Below, piece by piece: positions 36,510 through 45,190 of a stretch of DNA of 64,000 nucleotides. The notes under the pieces are model-generated. The model was not told the origin of the DNA. It worked only from the letters and a program-made list of their open reading frames with translations, and searched no databases. Within the stretch, counting starts at the first letter, position 1; each line of letters begins with the position of its first letter. Source of the DNA: an uncultured delta proteobacterium (GTDB lineage: Bacteria > Desulfobacterota > Binatia > UBA9968); the NCBI GenBank assembly GCA_963745835.1, contig CAVUZH010000013.1, positions 704,001 through 768,000 on the forward strand, written 5' to 3'. The position numbers and the translations under genes were made by a program.

Positions 36510-37211
36510 TCAGGCAGCAGACTGTTCGATCTTCAACTGGCGGCGCATAACTAAGGCCAAAACATCGCAGGGTTCACGGTGAGAATCGATAAATCGTCGT
36601 ATGTCGTCCAACTCTCGCGGTTGGAAATACGGCGAACATTTCGCTATCAACAGTTCGATGACGTCAGCTGGTAGTAATCCAAAAGTGACGTTATCGTCTT
36701 CGGAACAAAAGTCAGCAACCTCAATCGTCTCTGGTTCTATTACCGTGACCACATCCCTGAATAGCTGTACGAACAGATCAATTTTCTGATCGTCGAAGGC
36801 ATCAGCATACCACTTAAAATGGCATCGCATCTCTTTTTTGATTTCCCTATCTTGAATGCAGACCGTCAGACCTTCATCAACCAGCCGGCCGCGCGTCACT
36901 TCAAAGCTCAAAGGTTCGGCAATATTTGCGCGCGATTGCCGCAGAAGAAGATGGTCACGTCCATTAGTCACCTCAATGTACGCAACACCCATAGGATCAG
37001 ACATCGAGCTCTGGCAAAAATGCTTCTCGCTTGATGCTTTCAACGGTTCTAACCGATGACCTTCGTGTTGTTTCATAAAAGCACGCCAGTCGTCGCCGGG
37101 TATCTCCTCGACCTCACCGTTAACGTAGACATACTGGGGAGCTCGATCGCAGGACGTTACGTGATGCACGGCGTCACAGTTGCGACACCAGATGAATCTA
37201 TCACTAACCAT
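36510..37211 (-). CDS. Hypothetical protein, possible Zn site
   Basis: CRNC...HEGH; overlaps the stop of the upstream kinase. Confidence 0.75.
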   Translation of the reverse strand: MVSDRFIWCRNCDAVHHVTSCDRAPQYVYVNGEVEEIPGDDWRAFMKQHEGHRLEPLKASSEKHFCQSSMSDPMGVAYIEVTNGRDHLLLRQSRANIAEPLSFEVTRGRLVDEGLTVCIQDREIKKEMRCHFKWYADAFDDQKIDLFVQLFRDVVTVIEPETIEVADFCSEDDNVTFGLLPADVIELLIAKCSPYFQPRELDDIRRFIDSHREPCDVLALVMRRQLKIEQSAA

Positions 37212-38325
37212 AATTCCGCTGCTCCAGAGGCACTGCAGCCGAGGCGACAGCTTTAGAAGGGAATCTCATCAGCACTGTCGTGCCGACGCCCGGCTCACTT
37301 TTAACCTGAATTGCACCACCGATCAGCTCGGCCATTCGCCGTGCCACCGTGAGACCCAGCCCGAGCCCGGAGAACGAACGATGGATGGAGTTGTCCACTT
37401 GTTGAAAGGGCTCGAAAACTGAATCCATCTTACTCTTGTCAATGCCGATTCCGGTGTCGGAAACCTCTAGATCCAGGATTCCTCGATCCGAAGATACACG
37501 AGCTTTCACCCGGATTTCGCCCACCGAAGTAAACTTAACTGCGTTGTTGAATATATTTTGAAAGATTCTTTCCACCTTCGCACGATCGCTGATGATCGAT
37601 GCGCCGCCCTCTGGGATGTCGATTGTCAGGGTCAAGTTTTTTTCCCCGATTGTTCGCTGATAACGCTTCACGGTTTCATCGACGATCTGGCGCGCATCGA
37701 ATTTCTCGATGATGGGTGAGGTGTCGCCAGAGCTGAGTGACGTCATCCATAAAACGTTATCGATCAGCTCCAACAGTTCTTCGGAGTTGCGGTAGACGGT
37801 CTCGAGGACCTTTTGCTGCTCTTCGCTGAGCTTGCCAATAACTTGGTTGAGCAATAAATAGACAAAGCCCACAACCACGCTTAACGGCGTTCGCAATTCG
37901 TGCGACACGTTGGAGAGGAAGTCCGATCTTACTTGTCGCAGCTTAGTCTTCGCCCCGCGACGCTCAATACCGCGGCGGACGAGAGATAGAATGTGATTTA
38001 CGTCGAAAGGTTTAGAGATGTAATCGAACGCGCCAAGGCGGAGTCCTTCGATAGCTGTGTCCAAAGAGCCGTAACCTGTGATGATGATCGCTTCGATATC
38101 CGGATCATGCTGTTTCACCTTTTCCAGAACATTGATACCGGTAAAACCTGGCATCTTGAGATCCAATGTAACTAGGTCGACCGGAAACTTGTTTAGGAAA
38201 TCGACTGCTTGACCTCCCCGCTCGGCGATATGAACGGTGTAATAAGGATTGAGAATCATCTTCAAGGATTCTCGAGGTCCCATTTCGTCATCTACGACAA
38301 GAATGTGCGGCTTGTTCGAGTCCAT
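37204..38325 (-). CDS. Hybrid response regulator/histidine kinase
   Basis: REC (VDDE, LDLKMP, KPF) + SHELRTPL, NNAVKFT, DTGIG, GLGLGL. Confidence 0.95.
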   Translation of the reverse strand: MDSNKPHILVVDDEMGPRESLKMILNPYYTVHIAERGGQAVDFLNKFPVDLVTLDLKMPGFTGINVLEKVKQHDPDIEAIIITGYGSLDTAIEGLRLGAFDYISKPFDVNHILSLVRRGIERRGAKTKLRQVRSDFLSNVSHELRTPLSVVVGFVYLLLNQVIGKLSEEQQKVLETVYRNSEELLELIDNVLWMTSLSSGDTSPIIEKFDARQIVDETVKRYQRTIGEKNLTLTIDIPEGGASIISDRAKVERIFQNIFNNAVKFTSVGEIRVKARVSSDRGILDLEVSDTGIGIDKSKMDSVFEPFQQVDNSIHRSFSGLGLGLTVARRMAELIGGAIQVKSEPGVGTTVLMRFPSKAVASAAVPLEQRNYG

Positions 38326-38453
38326 GGCCGCTCCTTACGCAAAAAGTGTGCTAGATGGCTTTGTCTAAGAAAACTAAGAACTTACAGGGAAATTGGAGGC
38401 TACAGAGGTAAAACGGAAGGATTAACGGTACAAATTTGTCCAAAATTGTCGAT

Positions 38454-39884
38454 TTATGTCGATAGCTTCGGCTCCTCTCCACTATGAGGCTCGTTTATCT
38501 TCAGCTTTTCAATTCGGTATTTTAGAATCCGCCGGCTGGTGCCCAGCAATAAAGCGGCTTTGGTCTGGTTAAAGCCGGTCCGTTGCAGCGCCTTAACAAT
38601 AAGCTCTCGTTCGAATTCGTCCACCGCTTCGCTGAGAGGTTTTGAGCCACTCAGGACATCCTCTTTCAAGGTCGCAGTCTGATCTGTCGAGCGCATTCCG
38701 ACGGGCAGGTCACGGAGCATGATCTGCTCATGCGGCGTGAGTATTGTCAGCCGTTCAATCAAGTTTTCAAGCTCACGAATGTTGCCCGGCCAATGGTATG
38801 CCGTAAAAAAGTCGACTACTTCCGGCGACAAGCTTTTAACCGCAATGGAATGCTCTTGCGCCTTGAGTCTCAGGAAATGATCTAGAAGTAGCGGGATGTC
38901 CTCGCGCCGTTCCCGAAGCGCAGGCAAATAAAGAGAGACGACGTTGAGGCGGTAAAACAGATCCGGCCGGAACTCACCTGCTTTTGCCAAAATTTCTAAA
39001 TCCCGGTTACTTGCGGCTATCACCCTCACATCAACTTTGATGTCATCGGTGCCACCGAGCCGGGTGAAGGTTTCTTGCTCAATGGCGCGCAGGAATTTTG
39101 CCTGTGTGCTGAGATTAAGCTCGCCGATCTCGTCAAGAAAGAGGGTGCCACCATGAGCAAGCTCGAACCGACCAATTTTCTTTTGCGATGCATTAGTAAA
39201 GGCACCCTTCTCATAACCAAACAGTTCACTTTCAATCAAAGTATCGGGTAATGCGGCGCAGTTCACAACGATGAAGGGCTTCGAGCGGCGATCGCTATTG
39301 TAGTGAATCGCGCGTGCGATCAACTCCTTGCCCGTGCCGCTTTCGCCCTGAATCAAGACTGTAGATTTCTTAGCGGCTACCATGCTGACGGCTTTGAAAA
39401 CATCTATAATTTGCTTGGATTTGCCGACGATATGATCGATCCCATATTTCCGACCGACCTCTTCCTTTAACCGCTCCAGCTCCTTTGAGAGCTGAACTTT
39501 CTCGAACGCATGCTCGACCCGTAGCCGCAGTTCTTCAACGTCGAAAGGCTTGGTCACGTAATCGAAGGCGCCAGTGCCCTTCGCGGTAAAGGCGGTTCGT
39601 GCCGTATTAAGACCGGTCAACATTATTACCTGACACTCAGGATGAACTGATTTCATCTGTTTCAAAACCGACAGTCCATCAGCGCCAGGCATGACAATGT
39701 CGAGCAATACGATATCAGGTTTTTCTTCAGTCAGTTTCTGGACGCCGTCGTTTGCAGTAGCTGCCTCGACCACGCGAAAGACTTTGTCGAAAACCATTTT
39801 GAGTGAATGCCGGACCCCAGCCTCATCATCTATAACCAACAATACGCCTTGAACCATGTCGCTTTTCTTTTCCCGGTTAAGCAA
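38454..39884 (-). CDS. Sigma54-dependent response regulator (NtrC family)
   Basis: REC + GESGTGKE, GAFTNA, FLDEIG, WPGNIREL + Fis HTH. Confidence 0.95.
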   Translation of the reverse strand: MLNREKKSDMVQGVLLVIDDEAGVRHSLKMVFDKVFRVVEAATANDGVQKLTEEKPDIVLLDIVMPGADGLSVLKQMKSVHPECQVIMLTGLNTARTAFTAKGTGAFDYVTKPFDVEELRLRVEHAFEKVQLSKELERLKEEVGRKYGIDHIVGKSKQIIDVFKAVSMVAAKKSTVLIQGESGTGKELIARAIHYNSDRRSKPFIVVNCAALPDTLIESELFGYEKGAFTNASQKKIGRFELAHGGTLFLDEIGELNLSTQAKFLRAIEQETFTRLGGTDDIKVDVRVIAASNRDLEILAKAGEFRPDLFYRLNVVSLYLPALRERREDIPLLLDHFLRLKAQEHSIAVKSLSPEVVDFFTAYHWPGNIRELENLIERLTILTPHEQIMLRDLPVGMRSTDQTATLKEDVLSGSKPLSEAVDEFERELIVKALQRTGFNQTKAALLLGTSRRILKYRIEKLKINEPHSGEEPKLST

Positions 39885-41754
39885 TGGGAAACTCCATTGT
39901 CACGATCTCTTTCTCAGCATCGGTGCTATCAACAGCAATCTCACCACCAATACGTTCCACCAGCTGCTTTGCCAATAAGATTCGCAGGGGCAAAATACTT
40001 TCTCCCGCAGCTTCGCTCAGAGAACCGAGATATTGAGTAATCGAGGCCATCCGAGGTCCTTCACGAACGTAGGATATTACGACCTTTCCCGTTTGCTGGA
40101 TTTCAACACCAATCTCAGTGCCCACCTTTGCCTGCGATACTACCGTCGAGAAAACATTCTTAAGAATGTAGTCGAGCTGGTTCTCATCGGCAAAAATCGT
40201 GGCGCCGACTCTGCTAGTTTGTACGCGAACAGGAGCTTGACGTTTTCCGGACTCCTCTCGGAGCTCATCAACTGTCGAGCGCAAGCGTTCCTCCAGCGTT
40301 ACGCGATCTATACGAGGTTGACTGAAGTCGGCAAATTCGATCATCGTTTCGAGCAGATCGTCCATTCGTTCGATATCAGTGCTGACCACGTCTCGAAAAC
40401 GCGCCCGAAAATCCTCGTCTTCATATCGATCGTCGAGCAATTGCGCGAAGGTCTTGACGGTCACCATCGGATTTTTCATCTCGTGAGCCAACTCGTGAAT
40501 CAAAACTTTGAGTTCGCTCGCTCGTTCACTGCAGGCAGCTTGGCCTTGCGAGACTGGAACTTGTCTGCCAGCCGTCCAAGAGGAGGAGACCACCTTAAGA
40601 TTTGGCCGTTTCTCCTCTGGCGAACTAAACTCCTCTACATCTGCAAATTCCTCCGCTTCACTGGTCCCGGAAAAATCGAAAACCAGATCGTGTGCCTCAA
40701 TTGTGCTCTTACGTCCAACCACGAGGGTTCGAGCGATAACGGTTTCCATCTCGCTTAGGTTGCCGAACCAGAGATAGTTTGCGAGACGATCTCTCGCTTC
40801 GGGCGAAAAGGTTACCTGGCCTAATTCCAAGAGCGGTGCAAAGTACTGCGCAAACCAAGCGGCAATCGTCGGAATGTCATTGCGGCGATCTCTCAAGGGC
40901 CGGAGTTTAAGACTTAAAGTCGCTATCCGATAATATAGTCCTTCGAGGAATTCACCTTGATAAACTTGCTCAAGAAGGTCGATCTTTGTAGTCGCAAGAA
41001 ATCGGCAGGCAACTGATGTTTTTTCGACTTCTTCGATAAAGCTGAGCAACCTCGACTGCGCCGAAGCAGAAAGCTTTTCGATTTCTTCCACGACAAAGAT
41101 CCGCCCGGATTTCTCGGCCCGCCAAGTTAGCTGAGCAATCTTGCTCGCCAAGAATTCGTCATTGACTTCGGACGCATTTACAAAGCTGCAGGCGACGTCA
41201 CTCCCAGCAAGGGCGCAAATCCCTCGCACAACGCGCTCCTGACCGCAGCCTATCTCGCCTGAAACCAACACCGGCAAACGAGTTCTGGCAAATCGCTGCA
41301 CAAGAGCGGCTGCCGTCCGATCAAGGAACGGATATCTTAAATAATCCGAGTGTGCCGGATTGTTCGGTGGCCCCCGCATGGGTCGCATGCTGGGGAGGAC
41401 AGCTGTACGCGCCAATAACATTCCCACCTTTTGCTTTAGCTCATAGGGATTAAACGGCTTTGCGAGACAACCAACGGTTTCTTGCTCTTCGATGAGTTTG
41501 ATAGCGGATCTCGACTCGACCAGGAACAAAACGGCGCAGCTCACCTGTGCGGCAAATCTCAAGAGCTTTCCGGCCTCGGAGCGAAGCGCCGGGCTTACGC
41601 CAATGATCAGCAGATCGACATCCGCGCTAGTGTCCGCCAGCGTAAATCCAGAAGTGCCTAAAAACTTCTTCACGACGTAGAAGTCCCGCCCTAGGATTAG
41701 GGCAAGGGTTTCCCGAATCACCTCCGACTCATCAATGACTAAGATTCGCTTCAT
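39877..41754 (-). CDS. Chimeric protein: degenerate REC + degenerate sigma54 AAA+ + HisKA/degenerate HATPase
   Basis: RILVIDE..KPF; PVLVSGEIGCGQ..LRDRRNDI..WFGNLSEME; LAHEMKNP. Confidence 0.8.
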   Translation of the reverse strand: MKRILVIDESEVIRETLALILGRDFYVVKKFLGTSGFTLADTSADVDLLIIGVSPALRSEAGKLLRFAAQVSCAVLFLVESRSAIKLIEEQETVGCLAKPFNPYELKQKVGMLLARTAVLPSMRPMRGPPNNPAHSDYLRYPFLDRTAAALVQRFARTRLPVLVSGEIGCGQERVVRGICALAGSDVACSFVNASEVNDEFLASKIAQLTWRAEKSGRIFVVEEIEKLSASAQSRLLSFIEEVEKTSVACRFLATTKIDLLEQVYQGEFLEGLYYRIATLSLKLRPLRDRRNDIPTIAAWFAQYFAPLLELGQVTFSPEARDRLANYLWFGNLSEMETVIARTLVVGRKSTIEAHDLVFDFSGTSEAEEFADVEEFSSPEEKRPNLKVVSSSWTAGRQVPVSQGQAACSERASELKVLIHELAHEMKNPMVTVKTFAQLLDDRYEDEDFRARFRDVVSTDIERMDDLLETMIEFADFSQPRIDRVTLEERLRSTVDELREESGKRQAPVRVQTSRVGATIFADENQLDYILKNVFSTVVSQAKVGTEIGVEIQQTGKVVISYVREGPRMASITQYLGSLSEAAGESILPLRILLAKQLVERIGGEIAVDSTDAEKEIVTMEFPIA

Positions 41755-43921
41755 GAACGTGCAAGTTGCGCTCGGTCATTGCTCGAACGGGTTTCCCCGT
41801 TGGAATGTTGACAAGAAAGGAGGTTCCCTTCCCCACTTTACTTTCAACAGTAACGTATCCGCCATGCTCCTGTACAATTTGATGGGAGATAGAAAGCCCT
41901 AAACCGCTGCCTTCGTCCTTGCTGGTAAAAAACGGATCGAATATATGCTCGAGATTTTCGTTAGGGATACCGATACCGGTATCCTTAACTTCAACTTGTA
42001 CGAATGAGGGTGACTGCTGGGTAGCCTCCGGGGTGAAGATACGTGTTGAGATTGTAATTGTCCCGCCGTTGTTCATCGCCTGGATGCCGTTGAATATGAG
42101 GTTCATGAATACCTGCTTCATTTGTTCCCTGTCAATCCACACCTTGGGCAGGTTCGGGGTGAAGTCTCTTACCAATTCTACACTTTTTTCCTTCGCTTGT
42201 GTGTCTAAAATTCGCGCAATACCATCGATTACGTTATTCATGTCCTCTTGAGCAACATTCGGCCTCGAGGGTCGGGCAAAGCTCAAAAGATCCGTGATCA
42301 ACCCACAGATGCGGTCCACTTCCTTCAGGGCGAGGCTTTGGAAACCGTTACGAAACTCAGCGTCTTCGTACCGTTCTGGCAAAAGCTGGGTAAACGTGCG
42401 AATTGCCACCAACGGATTGCGAATTTCATGAGCAAGTCCTGCCGTAAGTAGCCCTAAAGAGGATAAGCGGTCCGCCCGCCGAAGCGTATCCTGCGACTGC
42501 TTCAGATTTTGGTAAAGCCGCGCGTTTTCAATTGCGACCGCCGCCTGATTAGCGAGAGTTGAAAGAAGCTCTAGATCTTCGTTCGAGTAAATCTCCTTAC
42601 CCGGTTTGTAACCGAGATTCAGAGCGCCGATCAATTTTTCCTTTGAAATTATCGGGACGCTAATCTCGGCCTCGATCTCCTCCATTCTCCTCGCAGTCAA
42701 CCTCCAGTTTAGGCTATCGCTAGCGATTTCAAGTTCTTCTCTAACGATTCCCTTTTGTACTTTTGTTAAGCTTTCAAGTAGAGGATCGTCGCGTAAGAGA
42801 AAGAACTGAGAATTTATTGCAACGCCGATGCTGGCTTTAAGGTTGAATACGCCTTTGGCTTCCTCGAGTAGAAAAAGAGACGCCTTTTCAATGCCAAGTG
42901 CCCGTCCGACCGTTCGAACCAGATTAGTGGATAAACTCTCAAGGTCCACGATCGAAACCATATCTTTACTCGAGTAGAGTAGCGTTTCCCGGTAGTTTAT
43001 CCGCTTTTGGAATAACGCTCTTTCTAGAGCTTCCTCCGTCCGAAACCGTAATTTGGGAAATAAAAACCCCACAATAATAAACAAGAGGAGTGTCGCCATC
43101 GAGAAGGTATAATTGATGTTTCCAAACGCCAACTGCTGCCCCCAAATGACCAAGATATAACAGGGAACAAGCAGCATGAATAAAAGTGATGCATAGATGA
43201 TGCTTTTTCTGATCGCAACGTTAATGTCGAGGAGGCGGTACTGCGCAATAGCATAAGCAGTAGTGGAAACATAGATGGGAATCGCATAACTTCCGTACGG
43301 AAAAAGCGGGAAAATTGTTATGTCGTAGAGATAAAGAAAATTATCGAGGCCGCCAAAATATCCAAGCAATGAGCCAAACAGGAGATATTTTATTTGGTTC
43401 TTCCGAACTCCTTCCGCCTTTAGGTATCCTAGGAAGAGAGTAGAAAGACCCCAAGCGGCACAAGCTATAAAGTAAAGGACCAGATATATGTAGCCACGAT
43501 TCGCCACCATCAAATACTCGATCCCGTATTTCGGAGCGACTTCTGAAACGAGAGTTCCATTGATACACAAGAACATCAAAGTTGCGGTGATTACATAGAG
43601 CGGAGCGACAAGAAGATTTACGGTTTTCCGCTTACGATTAGAAAAGAACTGGAGAACGAAATGGACGAACAGGGTCGGTATCAGCGTAGCACCAACATGG
43701 AGATAGCGTGCGGTAAATTCGGCTACGGACCGGTTCGCAGTAAATACATGCAATGCAAGTAAGCTACTCCACACGGTGATACTGAAGGAATAGATAGAGA
43801 ATACTCGGTAAAGGCTCGACTTGGGATCCTTCAACAGCACGAACGAACCTAGAGCGGCCGTGGTTACCGAGGTCAGGGCTGCGGAAATTCCTATATGAGC
43901 AGCGTCAGTTAAGCCGAACAT
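41732..43921 (-). CDS. Membrane sensor histidine kinase (N-terminal 7TM-type region, GAF, HisKA, HATPase)
   Basis: Multiple TMs; LANQAAVAIENARLY; AHEIRNPL; DTGIG; GSGLGL. Confidence 0.93.
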   Translation of the reverse strand: MFGLTDAAHIGISAALTSVTTAALGSFVLLKDPKSSLYRVFSIYSFSITVWSSLLALHVFTANRSVAEFTARYLHVGATLIPTLFVHFVLQFFSNRKRKTVNLLVAPLYVITATLMFLCINGTLVSEVAPKYGIEYLMVANRGYIYLVLYFIACAAWGLSTLFLGYLKAEGVRKNQIKYLLFGSLLGYFGGLDNFLYLYDITIFPLFPYGSYAIPIYVSTTAYAIAQYRLLDINVAIRKSIIYASLLFMLLVPCYILVIWGQQLAFGNINYTFSMATLLLFIIVGFLFPKLRFRTEEALERALFQKRINYRETLLYSSKDMVSIVDLESLSTNLVRTVGRALGIEKASLFLLEEAKGVFNLKASIGVAINSQFFLLRDDPLLESLTKVQKGIVREELEIASDSLNWRLTARRMEEIEAEISVPIISKEKLIGALNLGYKPGKEIYSNEDLELLSTLANQAAVAIENARLYQNLKQSQDTLRRADRLSSLGLLTAGLAHEIRNPLVAIRTFTQLLPERYEDAEFRNGFQSLALKEVDRICGLITDLLSFARPSRPNVAQEDMNNVIDGIARILDTQAKEKSVELVRDFTPNLPKVWIDREQMKQVFMNLIFNGIQAMNNGGTITISTRIFTPEATQQSPSFVQVEVKDTGIGIPNENLEHIFDPFFTSKDEGSGLGLSISHQIVQEHGGYVTVESKVGKGTSFLVNIPTGKPVRAMTERNLHVHEANLSH

Positions 43922-43930
43922 AGCGAACGG

Positions 43931-45190
43931 TTAGATCTCTCTCGGATCGGCGGCGAAGGGACGCAAGACTAAAGTCGCGTTTTTTCCTCCGAAACCAAAG
44001 GTATTTAAAAGCAGAGCTCTGATATTTCTATGAGTGGATTTTTCTCGGTGGACTTGAATGAGACAACCCGGATCCAGCGCGTCACAATTGATACTTCGTA
44101 AGATAACTTTCTTGTGAATCGACAACACCGCCGCAACTGTTTCCACTGCGCCGCACGCGCCTTGAGTATGACCTAGCATCGACTTTATACTAACAACCGG
44201 CACATCCTGTATTCGTTCTGCCAAGACCCGCTGAATTGCGTACGCCTCCGATAGGTCATCGGATACTGCACCTGGAGCATGCGCTTGTACATAATCGATA
44301 TCTTCAACCGTCAGACGTGCATCAGCAAGAGCATCAAGCATTACCGCGACTGCTTGATCACCGTTCGGATTCAGCATCATCATACTATATGCGTCAGAAT
44401 TGTGAGACCACCCAGCGATTTCGGCGTATATCCTGGCGCCTCGATCCATGGCATGTTCCGCCGTTTCACAAACCAAAACTGCTGCACCTTCGCTCACGAC
44501 GATTCCGTCTCGCCCGGCGTCGAACGGTCTGGGAGATTGCGATGGGTGTTCATATTGAGTAGTCATAATCCGAGCCGCGCAATAGGCTCCAAAAATGCCG
44601 GGATCGATCGGTGCCTCGGTTCCCCCAACGATGGCGGTATCTATTCGCCTCATCTTCAAGTTATCGACCGCGTACCCTATGGCGACGGTACTCGACGCAC
44701 ATCCTGAAGAGATCGTATCGCTGGGGCCTTTAAAACCGAATTTTGAGGAGAGCTGTGCCGAACTGGCATTAGGAAATGTTGATACGGCTGTGAAAGGATT
44801 AATTCTTTTTAAACCCTTTTCTTTGAAAACTTCATACTCACGAAATGCCCAACTTTGCCCTCCAACTGCAGTGCCGGTAAATACGCCGATTCTCGACATA
44901 TCACCGCTTAGCTCCAATCTGGAATCCGCAACTGCCATTTCGGCGGCTGCAACGATCATTTGCGATGAGCGATCCATTCGGCGCGCTTCTTTGAAGGAAA
45001 GGAACTCAACAGGGTCAAAGTTCCGTACCTCACCAGCAATACGCGTAGGGTAAGTGCTCGCGTCAAAAAAACTTATCGGTTTGGCTGCCGCCTGGCCTTC
45101 GGACAACCCGTGCCAAAATTCTTTTTTACCGATGCCAAGCGGAGATACGACTCCCATGCCTGTGATGACAACGCGGGGTTCGTGGTTCAT
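43931..45190 (-). CDS. Beta-ketoacyl synthase (FabF/KS-like), stand-alone
   Basis: RVVITGMGVVSPLG, SGCASS, EGAAVL, QAHAPG, KSMLGHTQGA, NTFGFGG. Confidence 0.92.
   Translation of the reverse strand: MNHEPRVVITGMGVVSPLGIGKKEFWHGLSEGQAAAKPISFFDASTYPTRIAGEVRNFDPVEFLSFKEARRMDRSSQMIVAAAEMAVADSRLELSGDMSRIGVFTGTAVGGQSWAFREYEVFKEKGLKRINPFTAVSTFPNASSAQLSSKFGFKGPSDTISSGCASSTVAIGYAVDNLKMRRIDTAIVGGTEAPIDPGIFGAYCAARIMTTQYEHPSQSPRPFDAGRDGIVVSEGAAVLVCETAEHAMDRGARIYAEIAGWSHNSDAYSMMMLNPNGDQAVAVMLDALADARLTVEDIDYVQAHAPGAVSDDLSEAYAIQRVLAERIQDVPVVSIKSMLGHTQGACGAVETVAAVLSIHKKVILRSINCDALDPGCLIQVHREKSTHRNIRALLLNTFGFGGKNATLVLRPFAADPREI

Follow-up and report, generated by a model that had tools for sequence, protein, structure and literature searches.

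The 64,000-nucleotide window analyzed here (positions 704,001 to 768,000 of contig CAVUZH010000013.1, assembly GCA_963745835.1, from an uncultured delta proteobacterium of the Binatia lineage UBA9968) carries on its reverse strand a gene, here given the working name X (39877-41754), whose 625-residue product appears to join a dead sigma-54 activator to a dead histidine kinase. It comprises a pseudo-receiver, an AAA+ domain without the GAFTGA loop, a linker, a dimerization and histidine-phosphotransfer domain (DHp) and a degenerate catalytic and ATP-binding domain (CA), as read from Pfam, AlphaFold and Foldseek. X is a conserved protein maintained under purifying selection; it is ancient, with orthologues in several classes, and the protein it constantly accompanies is the NtrC-type activator of the adjacent gene, not the kinase. 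The reading we prefer, and to which we give about an even chance, is that X is a dedicated phosphatase, an off-switch tethered to the adjacent activator.

The reading frame runs over 625 codons with no internal stop, as the first-pass annotation of this DNA had stated, and X is present as one copy in the source genome. Pfam recognizes Sigma54_activat (E-value 9.6e-13), AAA_lid_14 (1.3e-13) and HisKA (5.1e-9) domains, while a weak Response_reg match (0.057) and a HATPase_c match (0.0048) lie below the cutoff. The same Pfam scan found neither a Fis-type helix-turn-helix (HTH_8), in whose place HisKA stands, nor a PAS domain, nor a match to HPTransfase, the ChpT family, at an E-value of 0.1. An AlphaFold model built from 86 diverse relatives has four folded domains (mean predicted local distance difference test score, pLDDT, 86.3; predicted template modelling score, pTM, 0.48) and disorder at residues 376-408. 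Foldseek places the model closest to NtrC1 (E-value 1.3e-18), NtrX (7.5e-18) and HK853 (7.2e-12); the receiver (REC)-AAA+ fold of bacterial enhancer-binding proteins (bEBPs) is present, as is a DHp plus degenerate CA fold like that of ChpT-type phosphotransferases. All matches of an ESM Atlas search with X were clusters of its own family. In the window the pseudo-receiver (residues 1-119) lies at 41398-41754 and is conserved most strongly at beta1-alpha1 and the KPF loop; it is followed on the same strand by the AAA+ core and lid (residues 133-362; 40669-41358), the disordered linker of highly variable length (363-410; 40525-40668), the DHp (411-478; 40321-40524) and the CA (479-625; 39880-40320).

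Judged from its motifs, X cannot be a sigma-54 activator, an autokinase or a phospho-acceptor receiver. Two main sets of X were compared: 86 diverse proteins, whose choice by similarity to X brings a mild bias, and the members found in 95 distinct syntenic loci (103 plus the window, minus one false match, one copy of the window and seven duplicates). The phospho-acceptor position of the receiver is Gly52 (41599-41601), in agreement with the first-pass annotation; an aspartate stands there in 1 of 77 loci and in 15 of the 86 diverse members, none of the 15 having both acidic-pocket residues. A Walker A motif without lysine and a missing GAFTGA loop had also been reported, and both are confirmed. 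This copy reads GEIGCGQE (41236-41259) with Gln at the Lys position, has Gln172, Leu270 and Ser334 at ATPase-site positions, and has lost the first Arg finger and the sensor II Arg. The motif string AHEMKNPMVTVKTFAQLL likewise stands as described earlier. Across the family GAFT/ExELFG occurs in 0/89 AAA+ domains and the loop is deleted, the spacing from Walker A to Walker B being usually 54 residues versus 67 in the activator. In the CA domains DxGxG remains in 1/92 and GxGLG in 2/92, boxes that the kinases keep in 51/51.

These three losses are near-universal; how far the rest has decayed differs between members of the family. The Walker A Lys is retained in 41 of the 86 diverse members and 31 of 88 loci, the first Arg finger in 17/91 loci and the sensor II Arg in 17/93, and the Walker B and ring-contact Arg residues differ from locus to locus. 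The earlier description of X as "triple-degenerate" fits this copy; in the family at large the Lys (41/86) and the Asp (15/86) survive in part. P-loop glycines G166, G169 and G171, together with PLRER and WxGN, are kept in at least 85% of loci, and conservation in the AAA+ is strongest at Gly residues and at core or lid positions. An ATPase lacking N, G1 and G2 boxes had been described as well; G1 and G2 are indeed absent, but half of the N box is retained, since Asn533, in an alignment judged by eye, stands opposite the first Asn of that box in the kinase. That first Asn is present in 59 of 93 cases, and the second is gone.

X is widespread. A word-index search gave 798 matches, of which the top 120 are almost without exception full-length proteins sharing 51-100% identity, and a representative-sequence search reached members at 23-30% identity. 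A profile match extending to the C-terminal domain was found in at least 98 of 201 class genomes, counted among the 150 matches listed and including the source genome and the unpublished G479; a single-query search of the phylum gave 22/301, an undercount, the missed genomes being profile-positive. The activator orthologue is single-copy in 126/201 class genomes (G479 included) and was not found in five families. Among these 126 genomes, a full X is listed for 96 and a partial X for 5; of the 25 others, 20 were fetched, and X lay directly upstream of the activator in 20/20. One candidate, L021, was rejected as X and is an ordinary activator. The records derive from metagenome-assembled genomes of Binatia, Deltaproteobacteria, Thermodesulfobacteriota, Myxococcota and Nitrospirota, and WP_066064898 of Ca. 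Desulfofervidus auxilii is a member annotated as a Fis-family or sigma-54-interacting regulator. The ratio of nonsynonymous to synonymous substitution (dN/dS; Nei-Gojobori) is below 1 in 16/16 disjoint pairs (0.057-0.67, pooled 0.21). By domain it is 0.073 in the DHp (15 pairs), the most constrained part, 0.18 in the REC, 0.20 in the AAA+, 0.24 in the CA and 0.48 in the linker, with values of 0.10 for the activator and 0.18 for the kinase for comparison. Pieces of X were covered by metatranscriptome contigs from relatives in 4/4 soil runs, a comparison that had no silent control and so does not establish transcription.

The first-pass annotation held that the Fis HTH was replaced by a HisKA akin to that of the upstream kinase, and the phylogeny bears this out. 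The DHp-CA regions of 16 X form one group (Shimodaira-Hasegawa-like approximate likelihood ratio test, SH-aLRT, 100) that joins 10 orthologues of the neighboring kinase (99) against 40 other kinases. By this tree, a quick one with long branches, without an approximately unbiased (AU) test and without ChpT, the kinase half of X arose once, from the neighboring kinase. The REC-AAA+ halves of X likewise form one group (99); their tie to the neighboring activator is weak (88-89), in a tree for which only 6 other bEBPs passed the filter. When the bEBPs of the genome were ranked by profile against X, the neighboring activator came second, and in a single-query search it came eighth.

In gene order, X lies directly upstream of an NtrC-type activator in 84 of the 89 loci with room, and the gap between the two genes is at most 30 nt in 66/82. 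The kinase is upstream of X in 51/82 loci and unlinked in 31/82 by the script's count, in which one "no kinase" entry, L023, in fact has the kinase upstream of an X that is split. Of 5 kinase-less genomes checked, 4 have an orthologue of the kinase at an unlinked site. A hybrid kinase gene lies downstream in 50/55 loci. A role for X on the NtrC activator, as had been proposed, fits this near-constant position, although the proposal took two forms, co-assembly and inhibition, that are weighed below. The further claim that the gene overlaps both neighbors holds for the kinase, whose 3' end overlaps the start of X by 23 nt (an overlap also seen in 37/41 loci). The activator overlaps X only if its longest reading frame, from TTG 39884, is used; the likelier ATG 39857 leaves a gap of 19 nt.

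The DHp of X has the pattern that would be expected of a phosphatase docking on the kinase's substrate. Its H box, HEMKNP, holds His424 (40483-40485) and the phosphatase-site Asn428 (40471-40473), and V431, T435 and F436, at H+7, H+11 and H+12, make up the docking triad. The neighboring kinase has an identical V-T-F triad, which among 45 readable DHps (of 50 found in the genome) is confined to these two proteins. In EnvZ, the residues at these positions, T250, L254 and A255, dominate partner choice (PMC2991266). Eighty loci had been picked with the pattern LAHEx[KR]NP[ML]V, and H-box counts on them would be circular because the search pattern contains the H box; the counts were therefore taken from the 86 diverse proteins and from 20 loci chosen through the activator alone. 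In the diverse set His is kept in 85, Asn (H+4) in 86, Pro in 84, Val (H+7) in 79, Thr (H+11) in 82 and Phe (H+12) in 66; in the 20 activator-chosen loci His, Asn, Pro, Thr and Phe are all 20/20 and Val is 15/20. The Gly that the kinase has at H-3 is matched by X in 0/49, X usually having Glu.

In CrdS kinase activity alone depends on the acid at H+1 and phosphatase activity alone on the Asn at H+4, and the E372Q mutant loses the former while retaining the latter (PMC3510030). X has an acid at H+1 in 84 of the 86 diverse members. In family f17, however, the residue is Arg (6 loci; Lys in one other locus), and in family f103 it is Gln (9), His (2) or Asn (1) over 12 loci; X of both families also lacks the pseudo-receiver. 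One further lineage (L012:449-2287 and P0222) has an X orthologue in which the phospho-His itself is lost (S-S/N-VKNP) while the Asn, Pro and docking residues are kept; in L012 the gene after X differs from the usual activator.

In the proposed scheme the sensor kinase, whether encoded upstream or unlinked, would phosphorylate the activator, which in turn would switch on sigma-54 promoters equipped with the palindrome GnnCAAwwTTGnnC, namely those of the hybrid kinase operon and of small HTH_17 genes. The DHp dimer of X would dock on the activator receiver at the surface used by the kinase, where Asn428 would strip the phosphate. The pseudo-REC/AAA+ half, on its flexible linker, would tether the phosphatase to the activator, which is the weakest step of the scheme, and this half may sense nucleotide as well. 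Speculatively, the hybrid kinase and stand-alone receivers, having a similar docking helix, could load His424 and tune X, much as RedD does with RedE.

Several points weigh against this phosphatase reading. The kinase keeps its own phosphatase Asn (50/50), so that the need for another phosphatase is not obvious. Many HisKA kinases have Asn and Pro after the His, which are therefore not diagnostic alone, and the retention of His424 (85/86) and of the H+1 acid (84/86) fits phosphotransfer too. In the docking triad, H+7 is not Val in 5/20 loci and H+12 is Phe in only 66/86. Selection on the AAA+ fold (dN/dS 0.20) is explained only by the predicted tether, and descent of the REC-AAA+ half from the neighboring activator has the weak support (88-89) given above. 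A prediction of the complex between activator residues 1-392 and X residues 1-362, both supplied as alignments, scored 0.00 twice, in runs without control folds, and speaks neither for nor against the reading. A bolder form of the phosphatase reading, which we regard as doubtful, would make X a dead mimic of both activator and kinase that enters the activator oligomer by way of its pseudo-REC/AAA+ half and strips phosphate from neighboring receivers via its flexible arm, the obligate brake of an ancient circuit in Binatia and related deep deltaproteobacterial lineages. Just as tentatively, that circuit would comprise the kinase, X, activator, enhancer, hybrid kinase, stand-alone receiver and small HTH regulators, the activator-induced hybrid kinase giving feedback.

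The other explanations of X are partly compatible with one another. One is that X is a ChpT-like phosphotransferase or a phosphate sink, His424 being loaded by the receiver of the hybrid kinase or a stand-alone receiver and its phosphate passed to the activator or buffered from it. The near-constant His (85/86), a degenerate CA as in ChpT (PMC9981736), the downstream hybrid kinase (50/55 loci) and an activator-like stand-alone receiver in 18/41 family genomes plus one partial speak for it. Yet the H+1 acid is lost in two families and the His in the lineage of L012 and P0222, the hybrid kinase is REC-first and has an S-G-F triad, no HPTransfase match turned up in the Pfam scan of X, and an intact kinase with the same triad already serves the activator; we consider this role unlikely. 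The comparison with ChpT made in the first-pass annotation stands for the fold, but the two families that have lost the H+1 acid favor a phosphatase over phosphotransfer. X could also be mainly a stoichiometric anti-activator, its GAFTGA-less AAA+ (and pseudo-REC) poisoning the activator dimer or ring much as NifL or a dominant-negative subunit would, with the DHp only aiding binding. NifL, a kinase homologue, does inhibit a bEBP without phosphotransfer (PMC12998190), the AAA+ fold of X is under purifying selection (0.20), and the short gap to the activator gene is compatible with coupled translation. That the best-kept AAA+ residues are Gly, core or lid positions while the ring-contact Arg is variable, that constraint on the DHp is threefold that on the AAA+, and that at least 2 families lack the pseudo-REC make a ring poison less probable still.

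The first-pass annotation had further inferred that X heterodimerizes with the kinase, and a DHp heterodimer that blocks the autophosphorylation of the sensor kinase has a precedent in RetS acting on GacS (PMC8498467). The DHp-CA of X and the kinase share an origin, their genes overlap in 37/41 loci, and where the kinase is adjacent the DHp base of X matches it at H+16 (49/49), H+22 (47/49), H+25 (47/49) and H+26 (49/49). Positions H+33 to H+36 and H+41, however, nearly never match even the adjacent kinase (0-2 of 49-50), the kinase is not adjacent in 31/82 loci, and the unlinked kinase orthologues (4 of 5 such genomes) have a DHp base unlike that of X. In 29 kinase-less loci the DHp base of X has drifted, with the kinase consensus at H+15 in 2/29, H+19 in 1/29 and H+25 in 2/27, and the docking residues are kept, H+7 in 29/29 (in part through selection by the search pattern) and H+11 in 27/29. 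Docking on the same receiver explains the resemblance to the kinase better, and heterodimerization, poorly supported, is one of the slighter prospects. Lower again is the chance that X is a nucleotide-gated regulator whose P-loop binds ATP, ADP or a second messenger without hydrolysis and so switches DHp activity or partner binding. Its conserved P-loop glycines, PLRER and WxGN and the Walker A Lys of 41/86 members would suit such a gate; the Lys is missing in 45/86, this copy included, Walker B and sensor II are variable, and between the AAA+ and the DHp stretches a long disordered linker. A decaying accidental fusion, which the first-pass annotation had named as the outcome that would undo its view, comes last and can be set aside as next to impossible. 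It would account for catalytic motifs lost in three domains, for the split copies in L060 and L023 and for the one pair with a dN/dS of 0.67, but purifying dN/dS in all 16 pairs, the presence of X in at least 98/201 class genomes, its place upstream of the activator in 20/20 checked loci and the single origin in the trees reject it. Full-length orthologues and purifying selection make X a maintained regulator.

Among characterized proteins, bEBPs of the NtrX, VpsR and FleQ type have, like X, a REC-AAA+ fold in which the activation loop or the receiver is non-canonical, and they retain a DNA-binding HTH where X has a kinase transmitter. In its working, the closest parallel to the phosphatase reading of X is RedE of the Myxococcus xanthus RedCDEF system, which does not autophosphorylate; its His takes phosphate from one receiver and it acts as a phosphatase on another (PMC2755868). 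Both proteins are kinase-like and encoded in an operon with a true kinase and receivers, the parallel for X being drawn from gene content and order. RedE is a 242-residue transmitter in which the HATPase_c is conserved and the HisKA poorly so (PMC2755868), whereas in X the HisKA is well preserved, the CA is ruined and a pseudo-REC/AAA+ is added at the N-terminus, and the putative partner of X is a sigma-54 activator instead of a stand-alone receiver. ChpT has in common with X a DHp with its His and a functionally degenerate CA (PMC9981736), but serves as a relay for phosphate coming from a hybrid kinase's C-terminal receiver; X has extra domains, no HPTransfase match and two families without the H+1 acid. 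NifL, a kinase homologue without kinase activity, also acts on a sigma-54 bEBP, NifA (PMC12998190). It has PAS sensors and a GHKL domain that binds ADP/ATP, and NifA has no receiver, whereas X has lost the nucleotide boxes and its partner's receiver is intact. RetS is kinase-like and counteracts GacS through its DHp, dephosphorylation included (PMC8498467); it is a membrane hybrid sensor, whereas X is soluble, tracks the activator rather than the kinase and has a DHp base that drifts when the kinase is unlinked.

RedE, NifL, RetS and ChpT are known singly; a dead activator and a dead kinase in one protein, kept beside one activator across many families, were not met in the literature searched. 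No description of the X architecture was found in that literature, although supplementary domain-architecture tables, which lay outside the search, could list the family. X is a conserved and apparently undescribed variant of the kinase-derived regulators. It is routinely misannotated as an NtrC or Fis regulator, which inflates counts of activators. Nearly all carriers are known only from metagenomes. The natural variants without receiver, H+1 acid or His are a ready-made mutant series, and the conserved enhancer and sigma-54 promoter described next supply a reporter with which the circuit could be rebuilt in a laboratory strain.

The activator itself (38454-39857, minus strand; likely start ATG 39857) is by Pfam an intact REC-AAA+-Fis HTH protein in which the Asp, Walker A Lys, GAFTNA and Arg fingers are all present; neighboring activators keep G[AS][FY]TxA in 83/83, the Lys in 83/84 and the Arg in 82/82. 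Next to its stop codon a motif scan found two overlapping palindromic enhancer-like sites, GnnCAAwwTTGnnC (38427-38442 and 38437-38452), the first being the top-scoring match genome-wide. A palindrome near the activator stop codon occurs in 45/64 loci against 5-9 in refitted shuffles, the seed having been taken from the data. Between these sites and the hybrid kinase gene lies a sigma-54 -24/-12 site, TAGCAC-N5-TTGC (38339-38353, minus strand), recognized by conservation across loci: sequences agreeing with it at 9 or more of 10 positions stand before the hybrid kinase gene in 37/57 loci versus 1.3% in shuffles and are very rare before other genes of the locus. In the window the first conserved G is A, so that the site of this copy may be weak. 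The ends of two metatranscriptome contigs, 38278 and 38304, fall close to the predicted promoter and give no more than a weak hint. From position, we infer that the window's activator binds GnnCAAwwTTGnnC, and the hybrid kinase is likely to be one of its target genes.

Of 100 palindrome sites in the genome, 7 lie no more than 300 bp from a sigma-54 match, against 2% of random positions. Two of these precede small HTH_17 genes, C15:135158-135376 (L120) and C15:113560-113790 (L121); such excisionase-like genes presumably resemble BldC. The L120 gene is conserved in the family. In an independent test on its relatives (the best 30 of 60 matches fetched, G504 left out) the palindrome is found in 21/29 and the sigma-54 site in 29/29, against 0.7% in shuffles. 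The enhancer and sigma-54 promoter before the hybrid kinase and an unlinked HTH_17 gene may thus define a candidate regulon, new here. Further enhancer plus sigma-54 sites stand before short unknown open reading frames (ORFs) at C4:23731 and C3:1391356 (L122, L123), which are candidate members by sequence. In the source genome the regions preceding the genes for the kinase, X, activator, ketosynthase and stand-alone receiver yielded neither an enhancer nor a sigma-54 site. In kinase-less loci the palindrome lies upstream of X in 13/32, and it precedes 1/28 kinase genes, which hints at autoregulation.

Around these genes, the intact sensor kinase (41732-43921, minus strand, 729 residues) has a HisKA_7TM-GAF-HisKA-HATPase_c order by Pfam. 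Its sensor part is interchangeable among loci: one form of the protein, of about 720 residues, carries 7TM-GAF and is often encoded behind a ketosynthase, and the other, of about 500 residues, has a different N-terminus. In the window a stand-alone FabF-like ketosynthase gene (43931-45190, minus strand) lies 9 nt upstream of the 7TM-GAF kinase, a position kept in several relatives, and one may speculate that the enzyme could make a signal for the kinase sensor; in other loci a different kinase N-terminus is paired with another upstream gene. Downstream of the activator, the hybrid kinase (37204-38325, minus strand, 373 residues; REC-HisKA-HATPase_c by Pfam) has a receiver alpha1 like that of the activator and a DHp triad, S-G-F, that differs. 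Its gene is overlapped by that of a conserved 233-residue protein with an N-terminal CxxC (36510-37211, minus strand; identified as an ORF and by synteny), for which no convincing match was found in Pfam, NCBIfam or the ESM Atlas and which is predicted to be co-transcribed with the hybrid kinase in many loci. Elsewhere in the genome, a pseudo-receiver profile scores a stand-alone receiver (G000:C22:51717-52103; L119:6718-7104) at 64.7 bits, the activator at 62.7 and the next protein at 49.6. This receiver is 47% identical to that of the activator, has intact catalytic residues, occurs in the 18/41 family genomes plus one partial noted above (unpublished G504 included), and is a possible sink or relay for the same kinase.

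Some members of the X family depart from the usual plan. X is split into two ORFs in L060 (6746-8637) and L023, by frameshift or assembly error, and the genome G203 (L014/L023) has two similar copies. P0243 and P0270 are, respectively, an X fused to a glycosyltransferase 9 domain (1040 residues) and an X with an acidic linker of about 300 residues (886 residues). The single sequence P0201 (827 residues) combines a GAFTGA-less AAA+ with GAF, PAS, a DHp of the X-type subfamily and an intact CA; by its motifs it looks like an active kinase joined to a degenerate AAA+, and it may be an intermediate or a parallel fusion. Kinase-less loci (among them L056:4986-5768, L075:4992-5669 and L064:3875-4537, all three on the minus strand) contain a divergent operon whose first protein, of 220-260 residues and with a DHp-like His motif, H.[FL]GNL[FL].R, is possibly a second pseudo-kinase; it is followed by an NtrC-type gene and an ExeA-like ATPase.

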